Below are positions 1 to 9,344 of a stretch of 64,000 nt of DNA, piece by piece. Where the stretch lies: the NCBI GenBank assembly GCA_020628865.1, contig JAHDEJ010000001.1, positions 234,395-298,394 of the forward strand, read 5' to 3'. The notes under the pieces are model-generated. The model did no database searches and was not told where the DNA came from. It saw only the letters and a list, made by a program, of their open reading frames with translations. Both the position numbers and the translations under genes were made by a program. The stretch is from Acidimicrobiales bacterium. GTDB taxonomy: Bacteria; Actinomycetota; Acidimicrobiia; Acidimicrobiales; SHLQ01. Numbering within the stretch: the first letter of the stretch is position 1; each line of letters starts with the position of its first letter.

Positions 1-420
1 GCGTCGTGGGCCGAGCAGCTCTCGTCGGACGCCGACATCCGGAGTCGACCGTCGCCCGAGGTGTGGAGCACCCTTGAATACGCGGCGCACGTGCGCGACG
101 TGTTCCGACTGTTCCTCGTCCGGCTCGAGCTGATGTTGACCGAGGACAACCCGTTGTTCGCCAACTGGAATCCGAACGAGACTGCCGAGTCCGAGCGCTA
201 CGACCTTCAGGACCCGGCACAGGTCTCGGACGAGCTCGTGGAGGCGGCCCATGCGTTGGCAGACCGGTTCGAACAGCTGACCGAAGACCAGCTCAGTCGG
301 CCGGGACGGCGATCGGACGGAGCCGAGTTCTCCGTTCTCACGTTCGCCCGGTACGAGATCCACGACCCGATGCATCACCTGTGGGACGTGACCGGGGAAT
401 GGCAGGGCCCCTCCCGCTGA
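1..420 (+). CDS. DinB-family (DinB_2-like) protein, 5' end outside window
   Basis: The reading frame is open from base 1 with no stop. The sequence WSTLEYAAHVRDV...YEIHDPMHHLWDV fits the DinB-type helical-bundle His pattern. Stop at 418-420. Confidence 0.55.
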   Translation, partial: ASWAEQLSSDADIRSRPSPEVWSTLEYAAHVRDVFRLFLVRLELMLTEDNPLFANWNPNETAESERYDLQDPAQVSDELVEAAHALADRFEQLTEDQLSRPGRRSDGAEFSVLTFARYEIHDPMHHLWDVTGEWQGPSR

Positions 421-423
421 GGC

Positions 424-1851
424 TCACCAGCTGATCTGGTCGAACATCGCCCAGAGCTTGCGTGCGCGAACCGGGTTGGTTGCCTGGACGTGTCCGATTC
501 GACCTTCGAGGTGCGCCCGATAGTTCGGGTGTCCACGCCGATTCGCGACGGCGGGTCCGTGGTGCACCGCCTCGTGCAGTTGCGCTCGCAGCCGGTCGAG
601 CTCGGCGCGCTCCATGTTGAGGTGCCGGTTCACCGTCATGCCGGTGAGCACCTGCCGTTGGTGGGCGCGTTGCATCCGGGTCTTTTCGGGATGGACGGCG
701 AAGCCCTCATCCCGGACGATGTCCGTGGCGAGTGCAACGAATCGCCGGGCACCCGCTGCGAATTCGTCGTCGCCGGAAACGGCGAAATCGTCGGCGTAGC
801 GGGTGTAGGTGGCATCGAATCGCCGGGCGAGTGCTCGCAGCCGAACGTCGAGGCCGAAGGCGGCCAGATTGGCCAGCGCGGGCGACGTCGGCGCTCCCTG
901 CGGGAGGTGCGGTCCGCGCAGCATCGCCGCCGTGGAAGGATCGATGCGTGCTCCGGGAGCGCCGTGCAGCACCGGCTCGGGTGTGGCGTTCGTGGACAGG
1001 CCGGTCAGCACATGGGCGACCGCGGCCGGGTATCCCATCGCTTCGTAGGTGGCAAAGACCCGACCGACCGGCACCGACGTGAAGAAGCTCCGCAGGTCCA
1101 TCCGCAGGACAAGCCGTCGTCCCGTGTGCGGGGCTGCGAACGTCTGGATCGAACGCCCGGCCCTGAAGCCGTGCGCCGCATCGTGTGGCGGCACGTGGTC
1201 GAGGATGCTCCGCAACAGTCGGCGATGCAGGTACTTCAGGTTCTGCTTCGGGGCCTCCACCAATCGGGCGCCCCCTCGACGCTTCGTCCGCCAGTGGTAG
1301 TTGTAGTGGCGCAGATCCTCGTCCGACACGGTCCGTTCGAGCGAACGGACATCTGCGAACCACTCCAGATATCGAGGGTCGAGACCGAGGAGGTCGGCGA
1401 CGTCCTGGGGGGTCTCGAGCTCGACGACCGGCCACCGACGCTCGTGCATCGACGACGACATGGAACCGATGCCAGGTGCCGGCCATCGCTCCTCGATCTC
1501 GTTCTGCCCGTTCGCCAACCAGTCGACGAGGTCGTGGTGCATCCGCGGCAGGGACTCGACCACTGCAGACTCGATCGCAGTGCGGAAGAGTGCGACGCGC
1601 GGCGACGGCGGCTCGGGGAAGGCCGCGACCACGACGCCGGCGAGGGTCTCGAGCCATGGCTGTGGGGGAATGGCGAGATCGTGGGCGGCACGACCAGCCA
1701 TCTGCGACGGCGCCCAGACACCGTCGCGAAACGCAAACGAGATGATGTCGATCACTCGTTTCCGACGCTTGGCGTTCAGCGGTGGCAGCGGAGCGCTCCG
1801 ACTTTGCGTGTCGTGGGTGCGGTTTCGCAGGCGGAGCCTGCAGCTTCGCAT
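424..1851 (-). CDS. Retron-clade reverse transcriptase (RNA-directed DNA polymerase) with ~170-190 aa N-terminal extension
   Basis: RT motifs are present in order: HYNYHWRTKRRGGARLVEAPKQNLKYLHRRLL, RMDLRSFFTSV, LPQGAPTSPALANL, YTRYADDFAVSG (catalytic YADD), HPEKTR, then the retron-like RQVLTGMTVN and AHLEGRIGHV. The first 32 codons (MRSCRLRLRNRTHDTQSRS...) look non-protein-like, so the true start may be GTG at 1755. Confidence 0.85.
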   Translation of the reverse strand: MRSCRLRLRNRTHDTQSRSAPLPPLNAKRRKRVIDIISFAFRDGVWAPSQMAGRAAHDLAIPPQPWLETLAGVVVAAFPEPPSPRVALFRTAIESAVVESLPRMHHDLVDWLANGQNEIEERWPAPGIGSMSSSMHERRWPVVELETPQDVADLLGLDPRYLEWFADVRSLERTVSDEDLRHYNYHWRTKRRGGARLVEAPKQNLKYLHRRLLRSILDHVPPHDAAHGFRAGRSIQTFAAPHTGRRLVLRMDLRSFFTSVPVGRVFATYEAMGYPAAVAHVLTGLSTNATPEPVLHGAPGARIDPSTAAMLRGPHLPQGAPTSPALANLAAFGLDVRLRALARRFDATYTRYADDFAVSGDDEFAAGARRFVALATDIVRDEGFAVHPEKTRMQRAHQRQVLTGMTVNRHLNMERAELDRLRAQLHEAVHHGPAVANRRGHPNYRAHLEGRIGHVQATNPVRARKLWAMFDQISW

Positions 1852-2042
1852 CCGATGCGATGGCGGTGCACCGCAGCTCCCCCGGGGGTGCCCCGGAGCG
1901 GGTGAGGTCGAGTCGGCGATGCAGGCATCCCGGCTCCCCCTCCCTGTGCTCGAAGCGACTCCGCTGCCGTTGGGGCGAGTGTAGGACGAACGTGCGGGCG
2001 GCCGCCTACTGATCGAACCGGACGGTACCGCTACGGTTCCCG

Positions 2043-2879
2043 ATGGGAGGATCCATGATCATCGACAGCCATGTGCACCTGATGCCGCCACGATTGGGGC
2101 GAGCGATCCGAGCGTTCTTCGAACGGCACATCGGGGATCAACTCGTCTACCCGAGCGACGCAGCGGTGGTCCTGGACCGCCACCACGCAGCCGGAGCGGT
2201 GGCGGTATGGAACCTGCCCTACGCCCACAAACCGGGAATGGCCGACGATCTCAATGCCGGCATGGCGGAGGTTGCGGCTGCGCACGCCGAGCACCCCGTC
2301 CACATCGTGACGGGCTGCACCGTGCACCCGGGCGACGAGCAGCCGCAGGACACGCTGCGCCGGGCGTTCGAGCTGCACGGTGCCCGCGTGCTCAAGCTGC
2401 ACTGTTCGGTCGGTTCGTACGATGCCGACGACCCTCGGCTCGCCCCGGTTTTCGACGCAGCCGGTGAGCTGGCCATGCCGGTGGTCGTGCATGCGGGCCA
2501 CGATGTGAGCGGGCACACCCACGGCCACGAACTGGCACCGATCGCCCGAGTGGCCGAGCGTCATGGCGACACGACGGTGATCGTGGCGCACTGCGGTCAC
2601 GAGGGGAACGATGAAACGACGGCGCTGATGCGTCGCCTCCCGAACCTCTGGGCAGACCTCACCCCGGTGGTGCTGGAACACCCCGATGTGGACGCTGCTC
2701 AACTCGCAGAGTTCGCAGACCGGATGCTCCTCGGAACGGATGCTCCGAACACCGGCCGTTCACTCGACGACCAACTCACCTGGCTCCGACACGAGGCCAG
2801 CGCCCACGAGTCCTTCACCGCCGAGTCGCTCGCTGCAATCCTCGGCGAGAACGCAACCCGCCTCATCCCACTGCCCTAG
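2043..2879 (+). CDS. Amidohydrolase-family metal-dependent hydrolase (TIM barrel)
   Basis: N-terminal IIDSHVHLMPP metal-binding motif, later VVVHAGH and HCGHEG, and C-terminal LLGTDAPN, as in the amidohydrolase_2 family. Confidence 0.75.
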   Translation: MGGSMIIDSHVHLMPPRLGRAIRAFFERHIGDQLVYPSDAAVVLDRHHAAGAVAVWNLPYAHKPGMADDLNAGMAEVAAAHAEHPVHIVTGCTVHPGDEQPQDTLRRAFELHGARVLKLHCSVGSYDADDPRLAPVFDAAGELAMPVVVHAGHDVSGHTHGHELAPIARVAERHGDTTVIVAHCGHEGNDETTALMRRLPNLWADLTPVVLEHPDVDAAQLAEFADRMLLGTDAPNTGRSLDDQLTWLRHEASAHESFTAESLAAILGENATRLIPLP

Positions 2880-2891
2880 CGCTCATCCCTC

Positions 2892-3002
2892 AGATCTGTG
2901 CAGCTCCAGGTGCCGATCTGACACGTCAGCCTGCAGAGATCGTGAAGCTCAGGATCTGTGCAGCTGGGTGTGCCAACACGGCATCCAGCGCTGCACAGAT
3001 CT
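2892..3002. repeat. Two tandem copies (A 2892-2941, B 2952-3002) of a ~51-bp palindromic element AGATCTGTGCAGC..TGCC-N4-GGCA..GCTGCACAGATCT
   Basis: Read directly from the sequence. Copy B is agGATCTGTGCAGCtgggtgtgccaacacggcatccagcGCTGCACAGATCt. Copy A is a more degenerate version. Each copy can fold as a long hairpin. Confidence 0.85.
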
Positions 3003-3067
3003 CGATGTCAGTGGTGGCGGCTAGCTTCGGGACGACTTCCCCCATGACTGAACCACCGAAGGCACGC

Positions 3068-3979
3068 ATGGGACTTACTGAACTTCGGGCGCACGCGCGG
3101 CTGCACCACGGCGTCTTCAGCCGCCACGAGGCCAACGGGCTGGGCGTCACCGATTCCCAGCTTCGGCGCCGATCCGAATCCGGCGAGCTGGAGCGCATTG
3201 AACGTGGCGTGTTCGCGATCGCCGGCGTGCCGACAGATTGGTACCAACGCGCTCGTATTGCCACCCTCACCACCGGCGGAGTTCTGAGCCACCGCAGCGC
3301 GCTCGTCGTTCATGAGCTCGATGGGTTCAACGCAGGACCGATTCATGTGACGATCCCCAAAGCGCGGGCCGTGCAACGACGTGACGTGGTGGTGCACCGG
3401 TCGACACAGTTCGACCAGATCCGTGTGCAGACGATTCGGTCCATACCGGTCACGCATGTGGAGCGAGCCCTGCTCGACTACGCCGGCCACGTTGGCCGTC
3501 GACGACTCGATTGGGCCGTCGATGCCGCCCTTCGCCAGAACACCTGCGACCTGGGCAGTCTTTTCGAAACATGGGTGGGGCACTCGATACAAGGACGCAA
3601 CGGTTCAGGACCGATGCGGCAGCTGCTCGATGAGCGCGACGCGAGAGATCCGGTGCCCGACAGCCGCTGGAACCGGATGGTCGGCCGACTCATCGAGGAC
3701 TCGAACCTTCCCCGGCCGGTCTACGAGCACGAGATCTCCGGCGCCGACGGCCGCTTCCTTGCACGCGTCGACCTCGCCTTTCCCCTTCATCGTGTGGCGA
3801 TCGAACTCGACAGCGTCCGATGGCACCTCAACCGGGCGTCGTTCGAGGCCGACCCCCGCCGCAAGAACCGGTTGACGATTGCGGGCTGGACGCTCCTCAC
3901 CTTCACGTGGTCCGACTACGTCGACCAGCCCGCACGCCTGATCTCGACGGTCGAGTCCGCGCTCCGCAACGCCGCCTGA
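3068..3979 (+). CDS. AbiEi_4-like N-terminal HTH plus DUF559 (Vsr/restriction-endonuclease-like) domain protein
   Basis: The N-terminus LRAHARLHHGVFSRHEANGLGVTDSQLRRRSESGELERIERGVFAI is typical of AbiEi-type antitoxin-like domains. The C-terminus VAIELDSVRWHLNRASFEADPRRKNRLTIAGWTLLTFTWSDY is DUF559-like. Start chosen at ATG 3068 (GAAGG 5 nt upstream). ATG 3005 and ATG 3044 are alternatives. The track start at 2942 lies inside repeat copy B. Confidence 0.7.
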   Translation: MGLTELRAHARLHHGVFSRHEANGLGVTDSQLRRRSESGELERIERGVFAIAGVPTDWYQRARIATLTTGGVLSHRSALVVHELDGFNAGPIHVTIPKARAVQRRDVVVHRSTQFDQIRVQTIRSIPVTHVERALLDYAGHVGRRRLDWAVDAALRQNTCDLGSLFETWVGHSIQGRNGSGPMRQLLDERDARDPVPDSRWNRMVGRLIEDSNLPRPVYEHEISGADGRFLARVDLAFPLHRVAIELDSVRWHLNRASFEADPRRKNRLTIAGWTLLTFTWSDYVDQPARLISTVESALRNAA

Positions 3980-3981
3980 CC

Positions 3982-4091
3982 AGATCTGTGCAGCGCCATG
4001 TGCCGCATAGGCACACCCAGCTGCACAGATCTTGGGGTTCAGAATCTGTGCAGCGCTGGATGCCGTCGTGGCATCTCACGCTGCACAGATC
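3982..4091. repeat. Two further copies (C 3982-4032, D 4041-4091) of the same ~51-bp palindromic element
   Basis: Copy C is AGATCTGTGCAGCgccatgtgccgcataggcacacccaGCTGCACAGATCT. Copy D is AGAATCTGTGCAGCgctggatgccgtcgtggcatctcacGCTGCACAGATC. Copies A and D are both followed by GTGAAG. Confidence 0.85.
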
Positions 4092-4113
4092 GTGAAGGTT
4101 GGGGGGGCTGGTG

Positions 4114-4998
4114 TTAGAGGGTGGCGACGATTTCGGCCATGAGGTCGCCGGCTTCGGTCGGGTTCAGACCGACCTTCACGCCCGCGTCCTCGAGGGCTTC
4201 CATCTTCGCGGCCGCCGTGCCCTTGCCACCCGAGACGATGGCACCGGCGTGGCCCATCTTCTTGCCGGGAGGGGCGGTGACGCCGGCGACGTAGCTGACG
4301 ACCGGCTTGGTCACGTTGGCCTTGATGTACTCGGCTGCCTCTTCCTCGGCCGAACCACCGATCTCGCCGATCATCATGATCGCCTTGGTCTCGGGGTCGG
4401 CTTCGAATGCTTCGAGGCAGTCGATGAAGTTGGTGCCGGGAACCGGGTCTCCGCCGATGCCCACCGAGGTGGTCACGCCGATGTCCTTCTGCTGCAGTTC
4501 GTACACGGCCTGGTAGGTCAGCGTGCCCGAACGGCTCACGACGCCCACCGGACCGCCGGGCTTGGCGATGTGTCCGGCCGTGATGCCGATGTTGGCCTTG
4601 CCGGGGCTGATGATGCCGGGGCAGTTCGGGCCGAGAAGACGCGTGCCGGGGAAGTCGGCCTTCAGCTTGTTGTAGAACCAGGCCTCGTCGTGGGCAGGCA
4701 CGCCCTCGGTGATGACGACGACCAGCTCCATGCCGGCTTCCGCTGCCTCCATCACGGCGCCCTTCACGGCGACCGGCGGCACGAAGACGCAGGATGCGGT
4801 GCATCCGGTGGCGTCACGGGCTTCGGCGACCGAAGCGAAGATCGGCATGCCGTCCACGTCGGTACCGGCCTTCTTCGGGTGGGTTCCGCCCACGACCTTC
4901 GTGCCGTATTCGCGGTTCAGGTTGCCGTAGTAACGGCCGGTCGAGCCGGTGAGGCCCTGGTAGACGACCTTGGTGTTCTCATCGAGAAAGATGCTCAT
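4114..4998 (-). CDS. sucD: Succinyl-CoA synthetase subunit alpha
   Basis: [24 protein letters not shown]..., [11 protein letters not shown] and the [13 protein letters not shown] phosphohistidine-loop region. The gene lies immediately downstream of sucC. Confidence 0.95.
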
Positions 4999-5027
4999 TG
5001 TTCGTTCCTTCGTTCCGTAGTCGTCGT

Positions 5028-6170
5028 TCAGCCGGCTGCCAGGGCGACGGCCTTCTCGGCAGCGCTCAGCATCGTGGTTTCCATCATCAGCGCATCGCCG
5101 AGATGCGGGGCGAGCATGTCGCGGCCCTCTTGCGCATTCGTGCCGTCGAGGCGGATCACGATCGGACTGTCGATCGACACCCGCTTCATGGCCTCGATGA
5201 TGCCCTCGGCCACTTCTTCACCTCGGGTGATGCCACCGAAGATGTTGATGAAGATCGCCTTCACGTTGGGGTCGTTGTTGATGACCTCGAGCGCCCCGGC
5301 CATCACGTCGGCGTTGGCGCCGCCACCGATGTCGAGGAAGTTGGCCGGCTTGCCGCCGACCTGGTTGACCACGTCGACCGTGCTCATGGCGAGGCCGGCA
5401 CCGTTGGCGATCACACCGACGGACCCTTCGAGACCGACGTACTGGAGACCCTTGGCGTGGGCGGCCTCCTCCCGCTCGTCGCGGGTCTGCGTCTCGTCGT
5501 ACTGGGCGTAGTCCGGGTGACGGAACTCGCTGTTGCCGTCGAGCGTGACCTTGGCGTCGAGCACGTGCACGACACCCTCGGGGGTGAGGATGAGCGGATT
5601 GATCTCGACCATGTCGGCGTCGCCCTCGACGTACGCCGTGTACAGCTTCTGGAGGATGTCGACCGAGCCCTCGACCGCAGCCTCGGGCAAGCCGGCAGCG
5701 GCCACCCAGTCGCGCACGGTCGCTTCCGACAGACCGACGACCGGATCGACCCAGATCTTCGCAATCGCATCCGGGTTCTCTTCGGCGACGGCTTCGATCT
5801 CGACGCCGCCCTCCTTCGAGAGCATGCCGAGGTGCAGCTTGGCGGAACGGTCCAGCGTGAAGCTTGCGTAGTACTCCTCGGCGATGTCCGACGCCTTTTC
5901 GATCCAGACCCGCTGAACGATGTGCCCCTTGATGTCGAGGCCGAGGATGTTCCCCGCGTGCTCGCGCACAGCGTCGACGTCGGCAGCGAACTTCACGCCA
6001 CCAGCCTTGCCGCGGCCTCCGGTGTGCACCTGAGCCTTGACCATGACCGGCGTGCCGAGTCGCTCGGCCGCAGCAACGGCCTCATCCACCGAGAAGGCAA
6101 TCTCGCCCGGCGACACCGGCATGCCGTACTCGGCAAAGAACTCTTTGCCCTGGTATTCGAACAGATCCAC
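5028..6170 (-). CDS. sucC: Succinyl-CoA synthetase subunit beta (ADP-forming)
   Basis: [19 protein letters not shown], an ATP-grasp N-terminus, and the C-terminal [12 protein letters not shown] motif. Confidence 0.95.
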
Positions 6171-6326
6171 GCGAGCCTCCGAAGGGGGTTGATTTCCGGC
6201 CGTACCGCGTCGTCTTCGCAGCGGCCACTTGCGATACTAGGCAACACAGCGGTGAACCACCCCGCTTTGCCGGCCGTTTCGGAACAGCATGCGAACGGGC
6301 GGACAACCAACCCTCGGAGAACTGCA

Positions 6327-6872
6327 ATGCCGGTGGCCCAAGGCCCCAAATTCGATCTGCGTAGCGCCGCCGTCATCGGCGGCATCGCCCTCGTCGTGGC
6401 GTTCGGCCTGGGCATCGCTGCGTTGTTCTTCGCTCAGAGCTCCGGGAACATCGAAGTTCGCCTCGGCGACGCGGCCTTCCAGCGCATCGAAACGGATCGC
6501 ATGGCGGAGTCGATCGCCGATCAGGGTCCGGTGTTGTGGCCCGACGTTGCCGGAGGCAGCCGAGACATCTGGCTGCAGCACGTGGGTGACGACAACGGCA
6601 GCGGATGGACGGCATTCGACGCCCGCACGACCGGTGCGTCCCGCGACTGCAACGCCTTGTGGGATGCCGACGCACGCACGTTCACCGACCCCTGCACCGA
6701 CACCGTGTACCCGGAGACGGGTGAGGGACTGCCACAGATCCCCGTGTTTTTCGATGGACGGGAACTGATCATCGACATCAACGGCGTCCACAACGCCGAC
6801 CAGTTCCAGGGCTATCTGTCCGACGAGGACTTCGCCCGCCTCGAGGCAGAGGCTGAGGCCGAAGCCGGCTGA
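6327..6872 (+). CDS. Hypothetical single-pass membrane-anchored protein
   Basis: ATG at 6327 is in frame within the 4998..6872 ORF. TM helix AAVIGGIALVVAFGLGIAALFFA, followed by a soluble domain and an EAEAEAEAG tail. The upstream part of the track ORF is antisense to sucC. Confidence 0.5.
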   Translation: MPVAQGPKFDLRSAAVIGGIALVVAFGLGIAALFFAQSSGNIEVRLGDAAFQRIETDRMAESIADQGPVLWPDVAGGSRDIWLQHVGDDNGSGWTAFDARTTGASRDCNALWDADARTFTDPCTDTVYPETGEGLPQIPVFFDGRELIIDINGVHNADQFQGYLSDEDFARLEAEAEAEAG

Positions 6873-6880
6873 AAAAGGTA

Positions 6881-6916
6881 GAAGCGCCCCGGGCAACCCA
6901 CCTCCCGGGACGCTTC
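6881..6916. terminator. GC-rich hairpin between convergent genes, likely bidirectional terminator
   Basis: gaagcgccccggg (6881-6893) pairs with cccgggacgcttc (6904-6916), a 13-bp stem with one mismatch. On the minus strand it is followed by TACCTTTTTC, which fits termination of pcrA transcription. Confidence 0.5.
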
Positions 6917-7103
6917 GAAACCAAGTCCACCGATGCCCGCCAGCATCACTTGGCATTTACTAGGGGCTCGCCGCCTCTGTGTTCATCATGAAATCAGGAA
7001 CCAGCGGCTGAATCTGACAACTAGTTGTCTTTTCGGGCAGGTTTTTTGGATTTCTTGTCCAGAACGGCCAAATCACGCCGATAGAGGTCGTTTGCTTCAC
7101 GCC

Positions 7104-9344
7104 CTAGATCTTCTCTAGGGGCGCCCAGCTCAACAACAGGTGCTTTTCGCCGGCGTCGGGGAAACGGACGCGAGCTTCGGCTTTGTCGCCGGAACCGGTG
7201 ATGTCGATGATGACCCCCTCGCCCCATTTGGCGTGGCGGACGTCGTCACCGACCTTCAGCCCGAGCTCGTCGGCGCCCGACGGCTGAGGCCCCTTCACCT
7301 TCATTGCCGCCTCGACCATCGAATCCCGGTTGGCGCTGCGGTGACTTGCGCCGCCTCCCCCGCCCGAACTCCAGCCGCCCGATCCGAAGCTCGACGAGCG
7401 CCGGCGGGCCCGACTGCCTTCGGCATCGACCACGAGGTGCGACGGGATCTCGTCGAGGAAACGGCTCGGCGGGTTGTACTGCGTCTGGCCGTGCAGCATG
7501 CGGCTCCACGCATGCGACAGATGCAGCTTCTCCATCGCCCGGGTGATGCCCACGTAGGCGAGGCGACGCTCCTCCTCGAGCTCTCGTGGCTCACCCAGCG
7601 AGCGCATGTGCGGAAACACACCGTCTTCGAGGCCGATGAGGAACACGATGGGAAACTCGAGTCCCTTTGCGGAGTGCAGGGTCATGAGGATGACCGAGGA
7701 CTCGTCGTCGTCCATCGCGTCGGTGTCCGCAACCAGGCTCACGTTCTCGAGAAACGCGTCGACCGTCTCGAACTCTTCGGCACCGCCGACGAGCTCGCCG
7801 AGGTTCTCCATGCGCCCCTCGGCCTCGATCGACCGCTCCTCTTCCAGCTCGGCCAGATAGCCCGAACGATCGAGCAGGATGCGCAACAGTTCGGCCGGCG
7901 TCTCCTTGTCGAGCAGCTCACTGACCTCGTCGAAGAACACGAGGAAGTCGTCGATGCCCTTCGGAGCCCGGCCGGTGACGCCGGCCTCGTCGTAGTGGCG
8001 AAGCGCATCGATGAATGGCACGCCGTTGGCGTTGGCCCAGGTGTCCAGACGACCCACGGTCGAATCGCCGATGCCCCGCTTCGGCACGTTCAGGATCCGC
8101 TTGAGACTCACTTCGTCCACCGGGTTCGCCACAGCCTTCAGGTACGCAAGCGCGTCCTTGATTTCGCGCCGGTCGTAGAAGCGGGTGCCACCGATGACCT
8201 TGTACGGGATGTTGACCCGCACGAGGTATTCCTCGAGCGCACGGCTCTGCGCGTTGGTCCGGTAGAAGACGGCCATGTCGCCCCAGCGATGCACGCCACC
8301 CTCGTGGATGCGGGCGAGCTCGTGGGTGACCCACTGCGCCTCATCGACCTCGTCGTCGCCGAAGTAGCGGAGGATTCTCTCGCCATCGCCCTGCTCGGTC
8401 CACAGCTCCTTCGGCTTGCGACCCTCGTTGTTCTCGATGACCGCGTTGGCCGCGTCGAGCACGGTCTGTGTGGACCGGTAGTTCTGTTCCAACAGCACGA
8501 CGGTGGCGTCGGGGAAGGTCTTTTCGAACTCGAGGATGTTGCGGATGTCGGCACCGCGGAACCGGTAGATGGACTGGTCACCGTCGCCGACGACGCAAAC
8601 GTTGCGGTGCGCCTCGCCCAACATGGTGACCATGGCGTTCTGGACGGAGTTGGTGTCCTGATACTCGTCGACGAGCACATGCCGGAAGCGGCGCTGGTAG
8701 TGCTCGAGCACATCGGGGTTGCGGCGGAACAGTTCCACCACGTTGAAGAGCAGGTCGTCGAAGTCCATGGCGCCGGCCTTGCGAAGGCGGGCCTGATATT
8801 CGGCGTAGACCTCGGCGATCTTCCGCTCGAAGATCGTCTGTGCCCCCTCGGTGTACTCCTCCACCGTGCGGTAGTCGTTCTTTGCCGCCGAGATCGTGGC
8901 GTGCACGGTGCGCGGTGGGAACTTCTTGGAATCGAGGTTGAGGTCGCGCAGCACATAGCCCGTGAGGCGCACGGCATCGGCCTGGTCGTAGATGGTGAAC
9001 GACGACGGGAACCCGAGACGGTCCCCGTCGCGGCGCAGGATGCGCACACAGGCCGAGTGGAACGTACTGACCCACATCTTCTCGGCGACAGGGCCCACGA
9101 GCGCGCCGACGCGGGTCTTCATCTCTTGCGCGGCCTTGTTGGTGAACGTGATGGCAAGGATCTCGAACGGGGAGACGCCCCGATGCTGGATGAGGTGCGC
9201 AATGCGGTGCGTGAGCACCCGGGTCTTGCCCGATCCGGCACCGGCGATGATCAGCAGCGGGCCGTCATCATGGAGTACCGCATCCTCCTGTGCAGGATTC
9301 AACCCCGCCGTGAGTTCGGATCCGACCATCTCGTCCGTGGACAT
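7104..9344 (-). CDS. pcrA: ATP-dependent DNA helicase PcrA/UvrD family
   Basis: Walker A AGAGSGKT, VDEYQDTN, the helicase motifs of SF1 UvrD/PcrA, and a C-terminal GDDVRHAKWGEGVI domain. Confidence 0.92.
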   Translation of the reverse strand: MSTDEMVGSELTAGLNPAQEDAVLHDDGPLLIIAGAGSGKTRVLTHRIAHLIQHRGVSPFEILAITFTNKAAQEMKTRVGALVGPVAEKMWVSTFHSACVRILRRDGDRLGFPSSFTIYDQADAVRLTGYVLRDLNLDSKKFPPRTVHATISAAKNDYRTVEEYTEGAQTIFERKIAEVYAEYQARLRKAGAMDFDDLLFNVVELFRRNPDVLEHYQRRFRHVLVDEYQDTNSVQNAMVTMLGEAHRNVCVVGDGDQSIYRFRGADIRNILEFEKTFPDATVVLLEQNYRSTQTVLDAANAVIENNEGRKPKELWTEQGDGERILRYFGDDEVDEAQWVTHELARIHEGGVHRWGDMAVFYRTNAQSRALEEYLVRVNIPYKVIGGTRFYDRREIKDALAYLKAVANPVDEVSLKRILNVPKRGIGDSTVGRLDTWANANGVPFIDALRHYDEAGVTGRAPKGIDDFLVFFDEVSELLDKETPAELLRILLDRSGYLAELEEERSIEAEGRMENLGELVGGAEEFETVDAFLENVSLVADTDAMDDDESSVILMTLHSAKGLEFPIVFLIGLEDGVFPHMRSLGEPRELEEERRLAYVGITRAMEKLHLSHAWSRMLHGQTQYNPPSRFLDEIPSHLVVDAEGSRARRRSSSFGSGGWSSGGGGGASHRSANRDSMVEAAMKVKGPQPSGADELGLKVGDDVRHAKWGEGVIIDITGSGDKAEARVRFPDAGEKHLLLSWAPLEKI

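Follow-up and report, generated by a model that had tools for sequence, protein, structure and literature searches.

A probable clade-11 retron in an Acidimicrobiales genome: a structured RNA and a reverse transcriptase with a helical N-terminal domain, without an adjacent effector gene

Near the start of the window, by which the whole 64,000-nucleotide (nt) stretch analysed here is meant (contig JAHDEJ010000001.1 of an Acidimicrobiales bacterium, positions 234,395 to 298,394), the minus strand carries a gene for a reverse transcriptase (RT) of the retron type and, directly upstream of it, a structured non-coding RNA (ncRNA), which together make up a probable retron. The longest RT open reading frame (ORF) runs over 424-1851 on the minus strand and comprises 475 amino acids (aa), with an ATG at 1851 and the stop codon at 424-426; RT residues are numbered below either by this long ORF or by a 443-aa protein with a later start, as stated. 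In a first-pass annotation, made from the sequence alone, 424-2042 had been taken as one gene; positions 1852-2042, however, belong to no RT reading frame and are non-coding. The same annotation had described a convergent DinB-like gene and a divergent amidohydrolase as neighbours, and these are indeed found, as a DinB_2 gene at 61-420 (plus strand, 3 nt from the RT) and an Amidohydro_2 gene at 2043-2879 (plus strand). The locus is composed of the following features, all on the minus strand, with reverse-transcribed DNA abbreviated as RT-DNA:

424-1755, minus: RT coding sequence, 443 aa from GTG 1755 (ORF, Pfam, PADLOC, NCBIfam, Protein Data Bank (PDB), AlphaFold2 (AF2) and database call P0001)
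427-1434, minus: retron RT core with fingers, palm and thumb (PDB profile search and Foldseek)
787-798, minus: catalytic YADD motif (read from the sequence; invariant in 96 relatives)
1435-1755, minus: lineage-specific N-terminal domain of ~107 aa (AF2: five helices, then a disordered linker)
1780-1972, minus: retron ncRNA (msr-msd), 193 nt, on the RT strand (covariance model R1, 187 bits, E = 1e-30)
1950-1968, minus: 5' arm of the terminal inverted repeat (a1/a2), GGCAGCGGAG(U)CGCUUCGA, pairing with 1784-1801
1949, minus: candidate branching G (2'-OH primer), immediately 3' of the 5' arm; G in 71/79 family members
1900-1944, minus: P2 hairpin, msr part; 17-52 nt long in the family, sequence not conserved
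1880-1898, minus: P3 hairpin CUCCGGGG-CAC-CCCCGGGG, nearly invariant, 99.4% paired
1802-1878, minus: predicted RT-DNA template (msd), from homology to clade-11 RT-DNA; upstream boundary approximate
1815-1853, minus: P5 stem with inner hairpin, the predicted msd stem-loop; contains ATG 1851
1784-1801, minus: 3' arm of the terminal inverted repeat, UCGGAGCGCUCCGCUGCC, pairing with 1950-1968
1978-1983, minus: possible -10 element TACACT, 6-8 nt upstream of the ncRNA 5' end; low confidence

The RT is intact and of the retron type, as had been proposed at first pass; its best PADLOC models and its best PDB matches by sequence and by fold are all retron RTs. Pfam RVT_1 matches residues 190-398 of the long ORF (4e-20), and in PADLOC, RT_other ranks first (2e-151, residues 14-475) and RT_outgroup, which carries the annotation 'retron', second (1.5e-143); RT_XIII (8e-87, matching from residue 143) and other retron RT models come next, and 25/25 of the top matches are to retron RT models. 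The NCBIfam retron models (Ec67, TIR-retron, St85) match at 1e-46 to 6e-51, all under their family cut-offs, and the non-retron models are weaker (group II, 7e-13; Drt2, 7e-8). When the PDB was searched with a profile of 96 relatives, Ec86 (6e-52), Ec67 (3e-43) and Ec78 (2e-36) were the leading matches, with retron RTs extending down to 4e-17 and group II RTs at 4e-14 or weaker. The AF2 model of the 443-aa protein has a mean predicted local distance difference test score (pLDDT) of 92, and its top 18 Foldseek matches in the PDB are all retron RTs, with target-normalised template-modelling scores (TM-scores) of 0.42-0.78; the chains that contain the RT alone, from Ec86, Eco7/Ec78 and Ec83, reach 0.71-0.78. 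All motifs quoted at first pass are present in the minus-strand ORF ending at 424, namely YTRYADDFAVSG at 349-360, RQVLTGMTVN at 399-408, SIQTFAAPH at 234-242 and LEGRIGH at 448-454 (475-aa numbering). Region X (NAxxH, between RT2 and RT3) reads FAAPH at 238-242 of the long ORF, with F in place of N and with a histidine (H210, 443-aa numbering) that is invariant in 96 relatives; region Y (VTG, after RT7) is the LTG of RQVLTGMTVN, of which the G (G372) is invariant in the family and the V and T vary among relatives. Similarity to retron RTs sets in at about W140 of the long ORF, as judged from a reading of the Ec86 sequence and from the onset of the RT_XIII match.

For the DNA upstream of the RT, comparison was made with the two closest long-contig relatives, L081 (RT 70% identical) and L082 (63%), and this non-coding stretch was found to be more conserved than the RT coding sequence. 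Since a single-sequence fold of the region (z = -2.0) is uninformative at 70% GC, comparative analysis was needed. Already a sequence-only profile found the ncRNA upstream of the RT in other phyla. Alignment with MAFFT across phyla failed for the 5' arm and for the variable hairpin P2, and covariance model R1 is composed of six sequences with a hand-set structure. Independently of this model, RNAalifold on ten sequences (MAFFT alignment) revealed compensatory changes in 16/32 pairs and delineated the terminal stem formed by both ends, the invariant hairpin CUCCGGGG-N3-CCCCGGGG, a stem enclosing the second hairpin and, as a fourth element, a GAC/GUC helix of three pairs that adjoins the 3' arm on its 5' side; this last helix overlaps the terminal stem and is not part of the model.

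The covariance model finds its match immediately upstream of the RT and on the RT strand both at the window locus and in essentially every related locus searched (~80). The exceptions are L058, with a partial match further upstream, and L046, where the match (5787-5967) was assigned to the minus strand although the RT downstream of it is on the plus strand; in L070, a second, weak match (26 bits, 5381-5433) is located ~110 nt upstream of the main ncRNA. The ncRNA-bearing loci are distributed over seven phyla, comprising Actinomycetota, Acidobacteriota, Planctomycetota, Myxococcota, Pseudomonadota, Bacteroidota and Dormibacterota. Of the pair positions in the model-fitted alignment, 96% are paired, versus 41-49% with partners slid by 1-3 columns, and compensatory (both-side) changes occur in 34/38 pairs. 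Helices 1 and 2 of the terminal stem are 95% and 91.5% paired, with both-side changes in 17/18 pairs; P3 has undergone compensatory C-G to U-A changes in 27 sequences; helices 4 and 5 of P5 are 96% and 99% paired, with compensatory changes in 12/12 pairs; and P2 forms a single hairpin in each member examined (median -17 kcal/mol). The G.U pairs set the ncRNA strand as the RT-sense strand. What lies at 1780-1972 is, in sum, an ncRNA on the RT strand whose terminal inverted repeats (a1/a2) enclose hairpins, and which is separated from the RT by 24 nt (1780 to GTG 1755). Rfam 15 contains no match to it, either in 1-8000 with E values of up to 1 allowed or in the whole window at gathering thresholds, and a scan of 1-3000 for sigma-70 promoters and intrinsic terminators found nothing; the possible -10 element TACACT is identical in L081 and reads GACACT in L082.

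Retron RTs were grouped into 11 clades by Mestre et al. 2020 (NAR, PMC7736814), who found clade 11 to be essentially restricted to Actinobacteria and considered that vertically inherited retrons such as those of clade 11 'may have been domesticated'. A 2026 SPIRE preprint uses clade11-A and clade11-B ncRNA covariance models and reports the clade also from Pseudomonadota and Acidobacteriota, and the supplement of Khan et al. 2024 (PMC10849725) contains synthesised clade-11 retrons (terminals 1807-1928, no subtype assigned), including those of Nakamurella multipartita (1840) and Myxococcus xanthus DZ2 (1875). Judging from profile matches and the shared P3 motif, the window ncRNA is homologous to these published clade-11 ncRNAs. 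They carry the same CUCCGGGG-N3-CCCCGGGG hairpin as the window family, and an nhmmer profile of family alignment A6 matches 9/13 of them (1.5e-11 to 4e-3, the best being that of Myxococcus xanthus DZ2 at 1.5e-11) and 0/3 clade-10 controls.

RT-DNA was observed by gel or by sequencing in 7/9 of the clade-11 members with RT-DNA data (PMC10849725). The amounts seen by polyacrylamide gel electrophoresis (PAGE) upon expression in E. coli, given relative to Eco1 and reaching up to 2.5x Eco1, and the recovery of an RT-DNA sequence were as follows (Khan et al. 2024, PMC10849725):

Terminal 1928: PAGE 2.5x Eco1; RT-DNA sequence, yes
Terminal 1894: PAGE 0.16x Eco1; RT-DNA sequence, yes
Terminal 1925: PAGE 0.06x Eco1; RT-DNA sequence, yes
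Terminal 1913: PAGE 0.02x Eco1; RT-DNA sequence, yes
Terminal 1875: PAGE 0.02x Eco1; RT-DNA sequence, no
Terminal 1840: PAGE 0; RT-DNA sequence, yes
Terminal 1914: PAGE 0; RT-DNA sequence, yes
Terminal 1856: PAGE 0; RT-DNA sequence, no
Terminal 1912: PAGE 0; RT-DNA sequence, no

When placed on the shared structure, the RT-DNA of 1894, 1913 and 1928 extends from Gs just 5' of the 3' repeat through the P5-equivalent to the linker 3' of the invariant hairpin. The RT-DNA sequences of 1840 and 1914 reach into the 3' repeat, that of 1840 ending in the 3' strand of the invariant hairpin, and that of 1925 continues through this hairpin into P2. The P5-equivalent region lies inside the sequenced RT-DNA of retrons 1840, 1894, 1913 and 1928.

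Transferred to the window, this suggests the following mechanism. A single transcript would carry both the ncRNA and the RT message, and the ncRNA ends, whose pairing is shown by covariation, form an 18-bp a1/a2 stem that places G1949 opposite G1802, the nucleotide preceding the 3' arm (G in 78/79 family members). These two would constitute the opposed G pair of a retron a1/a2 priming site, the branching nucleotide being most often G (Khan et al. 2024, PMC10849725). The RT may then bind the msr half (1879-1972 as predicted by homology transfer, with P2 and the invariant P3 hairpin), prime from the 2'-OH of G1949, copy the RNA from G1802 through the P5 stem-loop and stop near P3, yielding an RT-DNA of ~70-90 nt by homology. 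Such RT-DNA synthesis has been seen by sequencing for clade-11 relatives in E. coli (Khan et al. 2024, PMC10849725). Overall, we consider it likely, with a probability of about 0.8, that 424-1972 (minus strand) is a two-component clade-11 retron composed of a 193-nt ncRNA and a 443-aa RT, which lacks an effector gene and acts through this RT-DNA mechanism; the estimate covers identity and RT-DNA mechanism only and does not extend to the biological role.

Several points weigh against this assignment. The covariation counts derive from a model-fitted alignment, by which the percentage of paired positions is inflated, with the independent MAFFT and RNAalifold analysis still giving 16/32. RT-DNA production at the window locus is predicted by homology to clade-11 relatives, and PAGE gave 0 for 4/9 of the clade-11 members in E. 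coli, two of which also yielded no sequence (PMC10849725). That PADLOC RT_other and RT_outgroup correspond to clade 11 of Mestre et al. is inferred by using the PADLOC models as a proxy, and the start at GTG 1755 is likewise deduced, along the lines given below. Finally, the N-terminal domain has no catalytic signature and few near-invariant residues, and a structural or RNA-binding role would fit it equally well.

With clade 11, the locus shares a retron-type RT without an accessory gene, an ncRNA directly upstream, vertical inheritance and, in the ncRNA, terminal inverted repeats, a P3-type hairpin and a (here predicted) reverse-transcribed 3' stem-loop. It differs in that the window RT is at most ~50% identical to that of any species-representative genome searched, and in that the window family extends beyond Actinobacteria into Acidobacteriota, Planctomycetota, Myxococcota and Pseudomonadota, a spread already noted in the SPIRE preprint. 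The group is already catalogued and the locus adds no new category. The first-pass annotation, which held that similar RTs occur widely in actinobacteria and remain uncharacterised, was right as to their being common there and still without an assigned function, while the group itself had been described as clade 11. More generally, that reading correctly saw a real retron RT and the absence of an effector; it missed the ncRNA, drew the gene and its extension too long and did not recognise the catalogued clade.

Other known systems are more distant. Retron-Eco1 (Ec86; type II-A3, PDB 7V9U/7V9X) serves as the structural reference, its RT core fold agreeing with a TM-score of 0.76-0.78 (target-normalised), and the window locus shares with it the YADD, region X (xAxxH) and region Y (xTG) motifs as well as an upstream ncRNA with an a1/a2 stem and a (candidate) branching G. 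However, Ec86 has a linked nucleoside deoxyribosyltransferase-like effector, whereas the window locus has none, and the Ec86 RT (320 aa), which is ~22% identical in sequence, lacks the ~107-aa N-terminal helical domain. The other effector-less group is the Retron-Eco5 (Ec107)-like branch of clade 2, which likewise consists of an ncRNA and an RT standing alone, with no accessory gene recurring beside them (Mestre 2020, PMC7736814; SPIRE preprint); it belongs to another RT clade, the window RT matching PADLOC RT_Ec107-like at 4e-47 against 2e-151 for RT_other, and its RTs, found for the most part in Bacillota and Gammaproteobacteria, are without an N-terminal extension. Type XIII retrons (clade 10; Mx162, Sa163) provide the next-best PADLOC model (RT_XIII, 8e-87), are reported to be vertically inherited and also have an RT with an N-terminal extension of ~110 aa; yet the N-terminal regions do not align, with the match starting at residue 143, two genes are associated with type XIII, and its ncRNA is of another kind, clade-10 ncRNAs not being matched by the family profile.

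The start of the RT protein has to be read in the light of the ncRNA. ATG 1851 lies in the conserved GGAUGCG strand of helix P5, and because this start codon is inside an ncRNA helix, the first 32 codons of the 475-aa ORF most likely reflect RNA conservation. The corresponding N-terminus, 'MRSCRLRLRNRTH...PLP', is kept in close relatives, where it varies exactly at unpaired RNA positions and with non-conservative changes. Among 77 related loci, 17 have the RT frame closed no more than 20 nt from where the ncRNA ends at its 3' side, and the first canonical in-frame start is found at a median of 6 nt past the ncRNA. Most likely, the RT protein begins at GTG 1755 and has 443 aa, which is also the start and length used by database call P0001. 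Database proteins of relatives (P0002, P0003, P0004, P0006, P0007 and P0010) start at the ATG within the ncRNA and have 475-483 aa; their first ~32 residues (window 1756-1851) are probably translated ncRNA. Public gene calls in this RT family thus often begin inside the ncRNA, resulting in proteins ~32 residues too long.

With the start at GTG 1755, the N-terminal extension, put at 140-190 residues by the first-pass annotation, shrinks to ~107 (33-139 of the long ORF), ~90 of which are structured, with a pLDDT around 90. This domain is conserved and fused to the RT in 96/96 aligned relatives. Pfam at E up to 10 gives no match, phmmer against the PDB no sequence match, and Foldseek no fold match (best E of 4 in the PDB and of 1 in BFVD), nor does the domain match any effector of known type. 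A single-sequence phmmer search of 1.84 billion representatives returned three matches, comprising a 101-aa fragment and a repetitive 1,817-aa protein, which are both uninformative, and a 420-aa protein of RT-family length; none of the three shows the domain outside an RT of the clade-11-type family. The idea that an effector might be fused into this region is met, on modelling, by a confident all-helical fold and by no match that would identify such an effector. A role of the domain in reading the variable P2 hairpin was considered and rejected, since the window and L081 have the same P2 sequence, whereas their N-terminal domains are only 42% identical.

As to inheritance, the RT has a synonymous divergence (dS) of 1.08 between the window and its syntenic ortholog in L081, with the flanking genes mostly at 0.86-1.08 (thioredoxin, 0.47). 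The RT dS equals that of the flanking genes, and thus the cassette diverged together with the genome. Over its whole length, the RT is 70% identical to that of L081, at a ratio of non-synonymous to synonymous substitution (dN/dS) of 0.21. The components compare as follows (window versus L081):

RT core: aa identity 79%, dN/dS 0.15
N-terminal domain: aa identity 42%, dN/dS 0.36
Flanking genes: aa identity 65-95%, dN/dS 0.06-0.25

Most of the neighbouring genes evolve more slowly than the RT (77-95% identity for 5/6 flanking genes versus 70%, with Mak lower at 65%), and the N-terminal domain evolves fastest. Between L082 and L087, the RT is 63% identical and the adjoining RecA 94%. Despite a dS of ~1, the window and L081 share 90% identity in the ncRNA. 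Across species-representative genomes, the nearest neighbour of the RT is found in the same phylum in 70/80 cases, versus 21 expected by chance. These comparisons indicate that the RT gene is functional, mostly vertically inherited and under purifying selection.

Regarding the chromosomal surroundings, the DinB_2 gene (1-420, plus strand) is truncated by the window start and has 208 aa in contig L085 of the same organism, where cupin, DJ-1/AraC, Mak and thioredoxin genes come after it, in synteny with L081. The sucD and sucC genes for succinyl-CoA synthetase (4114-6170, minus strand) lie ~2 kb from the RT and support a core-chromosome setting as opposed to a mobile or defence island. In the metagenome-assembled L082 (6001-8696) and L087 (5001-7543), the cassette is located between a gene for a major facilitator superfamily (MFS) transporter and recA, co-oriented with recA and 170-200 bp upstream of it.

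Two alternatives concern what the RT is and what it might work with. A group II intron, diversity-generating retroelement (DGR) or UG/Abi-type RT, or a decaying pseudogene, is scarcely credible here, even though weak similarity to such RTs is present, as in any prokaryotic RT: the group II model TIGR04416 reaches 48 bits (cut-off 300), Drt2 32 (cut-off 390) and Drt3a 19 (cut-off 200), there is no match to an Rfam intron or other RNA family, no DGR template/variable repeat pair is found near the RT (no direct repeat of at least 40 nt involving the RT locus), and the RT has an intact YADD, a dN/dS of 0.15-0.21 and an AF2 model with a pLDDT of 92. Model scores, Rfam, the repeat search, selection and the AF2 model together rule out both a non-retron placement and a pseudogene remnant, two of the outcomes by which the first-pass annotation would have fallen. 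Its further proposal, that the divergent amidohydrolase (2043-2879) acts as functional partner or effector, is highly improbable. The amidohydrolase does adjoin the RT divergently in the window and in L081, but this adjacency is ordinary synteny of two close genomes, in which the downstream genes are syntenic too, and is confined to this closest relative; other family members, at most 63% identical, have unrelated neighbours. Called genes around seven relatives are varied and of housekeeping type, comprising amidohydrolase/DinB, MFS/recA (twice), methyltransferase, DUF1501 and S10/EF-Tu. When all ORFs of at least 80 aa within 4 kb of the RT were clustered over 83 loci, no conserved neighbour gene emerged and no protein cluster was present in more than 7/83 loci; the amidohydrolase itself has no PADLOC hit. 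The lack of any conserved neighbour thus leaves the RT without an adjacent effector, and comparative genomics refutes the amidohydrolase as partner. Of the description as an orphan RT without effector, the second half stands, as no effector gene adjoins, but 'orphan' is misleading given the cognate msr/msd-type ncRNA directly upstream. Neither a linked effector gene nor a fused effector domain of known type, by which a tripartite retron is recognised, is found at the locus.

For the biological role, we lean slightly, and tentatively, towards a self-contained system in which the N-terminal helical domain is a built-in module for output or partner binding, with a domesticated non-defence role and, less likely again, an unlinked effector as close rivals. 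In its explicit form, the built-in module would make the locus a single-gene retron, in which the ~107-aa helical domain is a toxic or output module restrained by multicopy single-stranded DNA (msDNA) until its release on phage infection. Effector domains fused to the RT are known from retron types I-C, VII-A1, XI and XII, and several RT-effector fusions are entered in PADLOC as 'single gene' retrons; the domain occurs in 96/96 aligned relatives, has a confident fold and a disordered linker to the core, and is the fastest-evolving part (42%, dN/dS 0.36, versus 79%, 0.15), a pattern common at host-parasite interfaces. Known fused effectors are C-terminal, however, and the domain offers ~90 structured residues with no enzymatic motif, no transmembrane segment and no Pfam, PDB or BFVD relative, in loci outside defence islands. 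That the RT-msDNA particle has instead acquired a non-defence host function, as Mestre et al. proposed for vertically inherited clades ('may have been domesticated', on clade 11; Mestre 2020, PMC7736814), is a somewhat weaker possibility. It accords with the syntenic position among housekeeping genes in related genomes, with the same recA-side site in L082 and L087, with an RT dS equal to that of the neighbours (~1.0, window versus L081), with the same-phylum nearest neighbour in 70/80 loci versus 21 by chance and with the strong purifying selection on the ncRNA. Against it stand the lack of a known candidate function, the faster evolution of the RT relative to most neighbours (70% versus 77-95% for 5/6; 63% versus 94% for RecA) and the fact that all retrons characterised so far act in phage defence. 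A canonical tripartite retron with its effector encoded unlinked elsewhere in the genome is unlikely; nothing speaks for it directly, and it would reconcile the missing neighbour with the usual retron logic, but the effectors of known retrons are encoded in tight linkage with the RT and evolve along with it (Mestre 2020, PMC7736814). Extending the built-in module to the whole group, it is conceivable, if rather doubtful, that clade-11 retrons are self-sufficient two-part systems in which the N-terminal domain of the RT serves as sensor or output module and the particle has long been fixed in the chromosome, for which vertical inheritance across Actinomycetota, Acidobacteriota and Planctomycetota can be cited.

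Effector-less retrons are a recognised loose end, the question being the purpose of a cassette without a toxin. To our knowledge, in all mechanistically understood retrons msDNA restrains a linked toxin or senses on its behalf; self-sufficient clade-11 systems, if true, would imply either a retron mode of action that dispenses with a separate toxin or a host function, gained by domestication, for reverse-transcribed DNA. The window locus is a well-delimited example for such work, offering ncRNA boundaries, a candidate branching G, a predicted first templated base, a corrected start codon, a defined N-terminal domain without a known fold relative and evidence of vertical inheritance under purifying selection.

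Further away from the RT, clusters of ~49-nt palindromic units, GATCTGTGCAGC-N25-GCTGCACAGATC, are located at 2882-3018 and 3981-4108 and look like elements of the repetitive extragenic palindromic (REP) or miniature inverted-repeat transposable element (MITE) type. A 12-mer of the unit has 7/9 of its window copies in these two clusters, versus 0.47 expected by chance, and the two blocks are 70% identical as a 128-nt direct repeat (2891-3018 with 3981-4108), which is the only long repeat and lies away from the RT. The clusters flank both sides of an AbiEi_4 and MTES_1575 (DUF559-like) gene at 2942-3979 (plus strand), the product of which has an AbiEi_4 antitoxin-like N-terminus (PADLOC AbiEi, 1e-32) and a REase_MTES_1575-like C-terminus; no AbiEii toxin gene adjoins it. 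The database call for this gene is shorter (303 aa), and the start of the ORF thus probably lies inside the palindromic repeats.

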